Source of the DNA: a virus
Reading direction: 5' to 3' (one strand)
IMG/VR virus record: IMGVR_UViG_3300038410_000026
Span: 1 to 64,000 of that record
DNA: 64,000 nucleotides
This document shows, piece by piece, positions 22,761-23,165 of this stretch. Each line of letters starts with the position of its first letter. The stretch's first letter is position 1. The translations under genes were made by a program, and so were the position numbers. The notes beneath the pieces were generated by a model, which had not been told where the DNA came from, searched no databases, and saw only the letters and a list, made by a program, of their open reading frames with translations.

Positions 22761-23165
22761 TCAAGATTTTGCGGCCTCTGTGCGGCCAGTACCGCCGCAG
22801 ATGCCGCAGAGGTGGTCACCGTTTTCGTAGTCAACAATGTACCCCTCCCCTTGACAAGAGGGGCAATTGGGGTCCTCGTCGAGCGACTCGACCCGATATC
22901 GGGCAAGGCGGGCTCCAGCCGCTTCCATCTCGGGGAGTCCGTACTCGGCCCCGCGTGGGGGCGGGCCGTCGAATTCAACGGCGATGACTTCTTCGGCCAA
23001 CGCCGCTAAGTGTAGCGGGATATTTCCCGCTACAATAGCCCCCATCACATCAATGGGGGCGGCGGACGCGATTACCTCGGCGTCCGCAAACTCCGGAGCA
23101 CGGTTCCGGATAAAAGCTATGGCAGCCGCGTGGCGGCTGACAATAACTCTTCTAGGGCTTTCCAT
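22761..23165 (-). CDS. Csx16-like protein (candidate cyclic oligoadenylate ring nuclease) with C-terminal CxxCxGxG zinc finger
   Basis: IVSRHAAAIAFI, GNIPLHLAA, PRGAEY...EMEAAGARL..Y.V match recalled Csx16 motifs (SRHxGA, GxLPxHLAA, RGxEL, GAxL). Confidence 0.7.
   Translation of the reverse strand: MESPRRVIVSRHAAAIAFIRNRAPEFADAEVIASAAPIDVMGAIVAGNIPLHLAALAEEVIAVEFDGPPPRGAEYGLPEMEAAGARLARYRVESLDEDPNCPSCQGEGYIVDYENGDHLCGICGGTGRTEAAKS

Follow-up and report, generated by a model that had tools for sequence, protein, structure and literature searches.

Viral ring nucleases are the main known viral route against the cyclic-oligoadenylate signalling of type III CRISPR systems. AcrIII-1 (the Crn2 family; DUF1874, PF08960), which Athukoralage and colleagues are said to have described in 2020 as a viral cA4 ring nuclease, is to our knowledge the sole viral ring nuclease shown to work as an anti-CRISPR, cleavage of cA4 by Csx16 having been shown for the cellular enzyme alone. 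In the literature, a role of viral ring nucleases as anti-CRISPRs is treated as established for AcrIII-1 and is proposed for Crn4b (PMC12830947), another ring-nuclease family with phage or plasmid copies, that includes some proteins with extra terminal extensions, and that differs from Csx16 in its unrelated fold and broad specificity for cyclic oligoadenylates (cOA). Csx16 itself was predicted to be a ring nuclease from its conserved His, Arg and acidic residues and its partial similarity to DUF1874 (PMC8284326). The purified protein fully degrades a 100-fold excess of cA4, not cA6, and is cA4-specific even at tenfold more enzyme (Hoikkala et al. 2025, PMC12409355); the link between Csx16 and cyclic oligoadenylate degradation, which the preliminary description of the gene considered here had taken as background, is thereby confirmed in vitro. 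[quoted passage not shown] Csx15, a small related protein of CARF-like type, shows good binding of cA4 and very slow cleavage (PMC13148439). Given that the enzymatic activity of Csx16 and the occurrence of the family in phages have both been published, a phage Csx16 is already known in kind.

The gene that we analysed lies in the first 64 kb (hereafter the window, that is, the whole stretch of 64,000 nucleotides) of a linear IMG/VR virus record of 95,392 bases that is 94% complete (CheckV). DNA of this stretch is present in two wetland metagenome runs, and no RNA dataset is listed as carrying it; an identical copy of the encoded 134-amino-acid protein is found on two contigs. Like cellular Csx16, the window protein combines a full-profile PF09652 match, a core of approximately 90 residues, a predicted, possibly CARF-like beta-alpha fold and conserved His, Arg and acidic residues, and in both of them a structural link to the AFV3-109/AcrIII-1 fold is present but weak. 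Unlike cellular Csx16, it scores below the cut-off of the TIGR02620 profile, is encoded by a phage without Cas10 or a cas operon and carries a predicted zinc-ribbon tail, and the activity that has been assayed is that of the cellular enzyme. The window gene resembles the published phage Csx16 (PMC12409355) in standing alone in a tailed-phage genome and in being read as a probable anti-CRISPR. It differs from AcrIII-1/Crn2 in lacking PF08960 membership and in its conserved motifs. Judging from the sequence and by analogy with the cellular enzyme, we consider it somewhat probable that the gene is a phage-borne Csx16, a cA4 ring nuclease acting against type III CRISPR. It would then be one more intact phage copy of Csx16 and a credible candidate anti-CRISPR of a kind already proposed, and by itself it opens no new question. 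The features of the locus are collected in Table 1.

Table 1. Features of the Csx16-like gene and its flanks, in coordinates of the window
Feature	Position	Strand	Basis or remark
Csx16-family gene with zinc-ribbon tail	22761..23165, stop codon included	(-)	134 aa; ORF list
Csx16 (Cas_VVA1548) domain, predicted beta-alpha fold, possibly Rossmann/CARF-like	22890..23144	(-)	aa 8-92; PF09652, PADLOC, AF2
S10-R11-H12 loop right after strand beta1	23130..23138	(-)	candidate ligand-binding or catalytic motif
G47-N-I-P-L-H-L-A-A55 loop and helix after strand beta3	23001..23027	(-)	alignment of 149
E64-F65...P70-R71-G72-A-E74 block, then Y75	22944..22976	(-)	acidic/basic residues after strand beta4
C-terminal zinc ribbon (putative), CPSCQGEG (aa 101-108) and CGICGGTG (aa 120-127)	22785..22865	(-)	sequence
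Shine-Dalgarno-like AAGGAGGG (AGGAGG-type)	23171..23178	(-)	5 nt 5' of the ATG start; read from sequence
Intrinsic-terminator-like hairpin: 14-bp GC-rich stem, UAAC loop, U6 tract	23199..23235	(-)	consensus scan
Upstream ORF, 159 aa	23248..23727	(-)	no Pfam or PHROG match
Downstream ORF, 203 aa; 193 aa from 22721 with better ribosome-binding site	22140..22751	(-)	no Pfam or PHROG match

Family membership, conserved residues and fold

The protein had been placed in Csx16 in the preliminary description, with a profile search proposed as the check, and this assignment proved correct, although one of the profiles fell short. Pfam PF09652 matches the 134-residue protein at 33.9 bits (gathering score 25; E = 3.7e-8; profile positions 2-90 of 91), a match recovered again by a six-frame search, and two Csx16 models of PADLOC-DB, which have no curated cut-off, align practically end to end (PDLC01635, 28.7 bits, E = 2.9e-7, positions 2-91 of 91; PDLC01062, 25.3 bits, E = 3.7e-6, positions 5-97 of 98). 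NCBIfam TIGR02620, by contrast, was not reached, scoring 12.8 bits against a cut-off of 46.35 with residues 8-55 alone aligned. A relative of 92 residues that is 72% identical over the aligned core bears the NCBI name 'CRISPR-associated protein Csx16', and three other relatives carry the JGI label TIGR02620 family. On these grounds the window protein very probably belongs to the Csx16 family; given a TIGR02620 score so far under the cut-off, it represents a diverged branch, from which the assayed Csx16 enzyme may differ.

Relatives are numerous: a phmmer search of 1.84 billion representatives returned 727 at E<=1e-3, of which 366 reach E<=1e-10. Among 149 that were aligned, all save one (148/149) match PF09652, whereas TIGR02620 is matched by 100 of them at E<=0.1, the best at 2.3e-13; identity across the core of the clade runs from 47 to 74%. 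TIGR02620 was unmatched in five genomes that contain clade members, and PF09652 was matched in one of 401 genomes of one phylum. Searches with tblastn gave no match at E<=1e-3 in 50,697 GenBank phage records, so the window protein is not close to the published phage Csx16, and none in 72,556 plasmids. A similarity to DARPins in the PDB sequence search was rejected as chance matching on the 'PLHLAA' stretch.

The motifs named in the preliminary description (S10-R11-H12, G47-N-I-P-L-H-L-A-A55, R71-G-A-E74 and G84-A-R-L87) are all present in the 134-residue ORF. G47 and P50 do not vary in alignments of 25 and 149 sequences, and in the same two alignments R11, H12, N48, L53, A54, E64, F65, P70, R71 and G72, together with E74, Y75, M80, A83-G84-A85 and Y90, are invariant or at least 90% conserved. 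For R11 and H12, and equally for E64, F65, P70, R71, G72, E74 and Y75, this means invariance among the 25 sequences and at least 90% conservation among the 149. The pattern [ST]RH occurs in 202 of 210 family proteins and GNxP in 205 of the 210. Every residue that is invariant or nearly so among approximately 150 relatives is retained by the window protein, and its polar residues R11, H12, E64, R71 and E74 supply the His, Arg and acidic side chains associated with ring-nuclease chemistry (PMC8284326).

The AF2 model has a pLDDT of 92-98 over residues 1-90 and shows five strands alternating with helices in a beta-alpha-beta topology, with the conserved motifs placed in the loops after strands 1, 3 and 4. 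In Rossmann and CARF folds, loops that follow strands normally make up the ligand-binding face, and the conserved loops of the window protein are predicted from the model to do the same. Foldseek comparison of the model returned nothing at E<=0.001 from either the PDB or BFVD. The structures named in the fold comparison, none of them at E<=0.001, are Sulfolobus SiRe_0806, the cA6-bound CARF domain of Cad1, Can2 and Can1, and the fold similarity to 2j6c is weak.

If the protein works as cellular Csx16 does, its first 95 residues would form a dimerising CARF-like Rossmann domain, and the dimer would bind cA4 on the face that carries the loops S10-R11-H12, G47-N48-x-P50 and E64/R71/E74/Y75 and would cut it into linear products. 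In an infected cell, this would remove the second messenger that the Cas10 complex of the host synthesises, and CARF or SAVED effectors, for example Csm6/Csx1, Can1/2 or Cam1, would be kept off, as with AcrIII-1. The step from binding to catalysis might be questioned, given that Csx15, closer to a cA4 sponge than to an enzyme, combines good cA4 binding with very slow cleavage (PMC13148439) and that the catalytic residues of Csx16 are not mapped in PMC12409355; the window protein might then bind cA4 and hardly cleave it, as a sponge or as a very slow ring nuclease. We hold this unlikely. Csx16 itself degraded the excess of cA4 completely (PMC12409355), R11 and H12 are invariant or nearly so, and the authors of the Csx15 study argue that sponging would cope badly with the large amounts of cOA that type III systems produce, and Csx15 was not found in phages (PMC13148439).

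Viral setting and distribution of the clade

No cas genes lie near the window gene, as the preliminary description had it: among the 86 ORFs of the 95-kb record, PADLOC and Pfam identified no Cas10, no Csm/Cmr protein and no CARF effector. The single cas-like match in the record is a phage Cas4-type nuclease, and nucleases of this type are common in phages. Nor do the 86 ORFs include a type III CRISPR-Cas locus at or beside the gene, as expected given that this copy is viral. In a profile search, PF08960 (AcrIII-1) was absent from the window protein and from the whole record.

An alignment-based scan recovered relatives in 32 further IMG/VR viral records, of which 10 are at least 90% complete and 6 have terminal repeats, whereas a pattern scan of viral contigs derived from the single protein had recovered no relative. 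Cas10 was found in 0 of these 32 records, and an AcrIII-1 homologue likewise in none of them. The nearest structure cluster in the ESM Atlas is a Csx16 family with 293 members, 88% of them viral where the taxon is known. On the cellular side, only six loci were confirmed when one genome of each prokaryote species was scanned for a pattern, a number that bears no strict comparison with the viral count given that the patterns of the two scans differ. The gene had been described as captured; this is not borne out, the clade looking mainly viral rather than recently taken from a host. From the 32 viral records and the 727 clusters of representatives it is clear that environmental phages commonly carry Csx16 of a diverged, mostly viral branch, and the cultured-phage count of two genomes consequently understates phage Csx16.

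There is no synteny between the window phage and 36 other loci with the gene. The immediate neighbours of the gene in those loci are mixed non-structural phage genes (for example, HTH regulators, helicases, a methylase and QueC), with no recurrent partner next to the relatives and no Cas family among the listed neighbours. At a greater distance, four viral loci (L004, L006, L008 and L014) and one bacterial locus (L034) encode a DUF2201-type (metallopeptidase/VWA-like) protein approximately 5-6 kb downstream of the gene for the Csx16-like protein, and the DUF2201-type proteins of these five loci are related to one another (BLAST E 1e-6 to 1e-11).

The bacterial locus belongs to Moorellaceae bacterium AZ2 (JAZHPA010000006.1; L034:9662-20269), in which a Csx16-like gene with an N-terminal extension of 110 residues sits in a mobile-element-like island together with genes for a primase-like protein, SSB, a HerA-type helicase, a DNA methylase, ArdC, a PD-(D/E)XK nuclease, the DUF2201 metallopeptidase/VWA protein and a lone Cas6. 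An AcrIII-1/Crn2-family gene (L034:15250-15567; PF08960, 40.6 bits against 26) lies approximately 5 kb from the Csx16-like gene on the same strand, and a Cmr2-type Cas10 is located on a different contig of the genome. The pairing of two ring-nuclease families in one element, in a host with a type III system, fits a counter-defence role, in this single example.

It is also conceivable that the domain acts on another nucleotide, unrelated to type III CRISPR: a cyclic trinucleotide of the CBASS type, some other defence signal or the 2',3'-cyclic-phosphate ends of RNA. The clade is stand-alone and mostly viral, the window protein scores under the cut-off of the CRISPR-linked TIGR02620, and the same phage encodes a cRec 'cyclic-phosphate processing' domain beside Ro60 and Y RNAs, an arrangement that suggests that RNA-end chemistry matters to this phage. 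We give this reading a small though appreciable chance, given that the single Csx16 that has been assayed is cA4-specific even at high enzyme concentration (PMC12409355), that the clade core is 47-74% identical with the same conserved loops throughout, and that one relative lies close to an AcrIII-1-family gene in a Cas10-bearing genome.

The predicted zinc-ribbon tail

The predicted zinc-ribbon tail (C101-G127) is the sole new feature of the window gene. The fused pair of CxxCxGxG units reported in the preliminary description was located at C101-G108 and C120-G127, and the four-cysteine arrangement would be expected to bind zinc. Against profiles of known zinc modules the tail stays below threshold throughout, with 19.9 bits for the TFIIB zinc ribbon (PF08271; cut-off 29), 15.5 bits for the DnaJ CXXCXGXG cysteine-rich domain (PF00684; cut-off 32.7), and 12.4 and 16.1 bits for anti-TRAP (Pfam PF15777, cut-off 32; NCBIfam NF058604, cut-off 65). 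An identity as a DnaJ cysteine-rich domain or as anti-TRAP was rejected, the CxxCxGxG pattern being all that is held in common. A model of the tail on its own (pLDDT 69) consists of three short strands, its closest folds being the zinc ribbons of TFIIB and of the ribosome (TMq 0.5-0.58, E>=0.7), and on this predicted structure the tail is best called a generic zinc ribbon.

Terminal extensions are frequent in the family, and they vary. Among 270 family proteins, 127 carry a C-terminal and 37 an N-terminal extension of at least 30 residues, most of these extensions (107) being singletons. The largest group of related extensions comprises 24 C-terminal tails of approximately 135 residues without a Pfam match (P0016, P0019, P0022, P0033 and 20 others), and the second comprises nine proteins with a tail of approximately 150 residues; the tail of the window protein, a zinc ribbon, is unlike these domains of approximately 135-150 residues that are the commonest Csx16 extensions. 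Sixteen extensions contain at least two CxxC units and are mutually unrelated by BLAST, the window tail being one of these singletons, and in one relative the same kind of double knuckle is inserted between the SRH and GNxP motifs. Many relatives consist of the bare domain of 91-98 residues, and most end near residue 92-98. BLAST of the extensions of the 270 proteins found no relative with the window tail, and its role therefore cannot be read from conservation. A zinc-ribbon pattern was present in 7.0% of the family proteins, and among 501 other phage ORFs comparable in size the share was 3.6% (Fisher p=0.05); fusion to a zinc ribbon is thus recurrent in the Csx16 family and only marginally enriched, about twofold.

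We suggest that the tail of approximately 40 residues is an add-on particular to this phage, whose most likely function is to stabilise the protein or to act as a docking module. A more specific role, in which the ribbon makes the Csx16 domain either a ring nuclease docked on the Cas10 complex, an effector or nucleic acid, or a cA4-sensing switch of phage gene expression, appears quite unlikely to us. If the ribbon were functional in this sense, the terminator upstream of the gene and the variety of tails seen in other phages would suggest a family of viral modules that are coupled to a signal and share one cA4-binding core.

The sensing variant can be taken further, with the domain as a cA4 sensor and the ribbon as its output in a signal-responsive regulator that, like the CARF-HTH protein Csa3, would report the firing of type III systems to the phage. 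Nucleic-acid binding is frequent among zinc ribbons, the tail has a weak resemblance to zinc modules of the TFIIB type and others like that of antiterminator Q, and extensions of at least 30 residues are, as counted above, widespread among the 270 family proteins. We nonetheless regard such a regulator as very unlikely, given that the tail is of approximately 40 residues only, unique and without a significant family match, that zinc-ribbon patterns are just about twice as frequent as in other phage ORFs, and that many relatives are the bare domain. Still more improbable, to the point that we attach hardly any weight to it, is that the gene is a decaying or functionless passenger whose tail arose by loss of a stop codon. 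The lack of relatives of the tail and the end of most relatives near residue 92-98 are what such an origin would leave, whereas the open frame, the intact set of conserved residues, the good ribosome-binding site and the two regular CxxCxGxG units, which are unlikely to come from read-through into non-coding DNA, speak for a maintained gene. For the preferred reading, a phage-borne Csx16 with ring-nuclease activity, the practical value of the gene lies in its being a candidate with which to ask whether phage Csx16 is an anti-CRISPR and whether variable tails alter its activity or targeting.

Neighbourhood and predicted transcription

The gene lies within a minus-strand arm of non-structural genes that diverges from an HTH regulator gene (25309-25650), and the terminase, portal and tail genes are on the plus strand from approximately 41 kb. 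It had been described as the second gene of the leftward arm. This holds in so far as it is the second ORF after a non-coding gap of approximately 540 bp (23728-24272), and fails in so far as two more leftward ORFs (24273-24488 and 24547-25032) precede the gap on the side of the divergent HTH gene at 25309. Its placement in an early region would follow from position. Pfam and PHROG searches of the neighbouring ORFs gave no match except for the HTH regulator, and blastn of positions 20000-26000 against the phage collection returned nothing. The downstream ORF is an ORFan that retrieved itself alone among 5.8 billion proteins and had no usable Atlas match. The non-coding gap contains three tandem 'TCCATAAAAA' units at 23990-24030, and the interval 24273-25032 holds two small Cys-rich minus-strand ORFs, one of 71 residues with CCFCG...CARCG and one of 98-161 residues, which look zinc-binding.

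The 91-nt intergenic region upstream of the gene folds at -30.7 kcal/mol (z -3.2 versus shuffles), and the hairpin that it contains comes directly after the stop codon of the upstream ORF and about 34-38 nt 5' of the Csx16-like start. Between hairpin and gene, no sigma-70-type promoter was called and there is no room for one. With a terminator-like hairpin and no separate promoter, transcription of the gene and of those downstream would depend on read-through of the terminator or on antitermination, a pattern known from the delayed-early operons of phages. Immediate-early expression is usual for anti-CRISPRs, and here it is not evident, given the strong terminator-like hairpin upstream of the start.

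Two further observations concern more distant parts of the record. At its far end, outside the window, a DnaB-type replicative helicase is encoded at 90251-91027 on the minus strand, so the leftward non-structural arm would continue across the record ends if the genome is circularly permuted. Within the window, an ORF of 123 residues at 34384-34755 on the minus strand scores 82 bits (cut-off 27) with PF20274 (cREC_REC, 'cyclic-phosphate processing receiver domain'); it lies directly upstream of a Y-RNA array and a Ro60/TROVE gene on the same strand. For domains of the cRec type, a role in RNA repair is predicted, namely the resolution of 2',3'-cyclic phosphate ends (PMC7824862), and we speculate that the phage may couple destruction of the signal, by Csx16, with repair of RNA damage like that caused by type III effector RNases.
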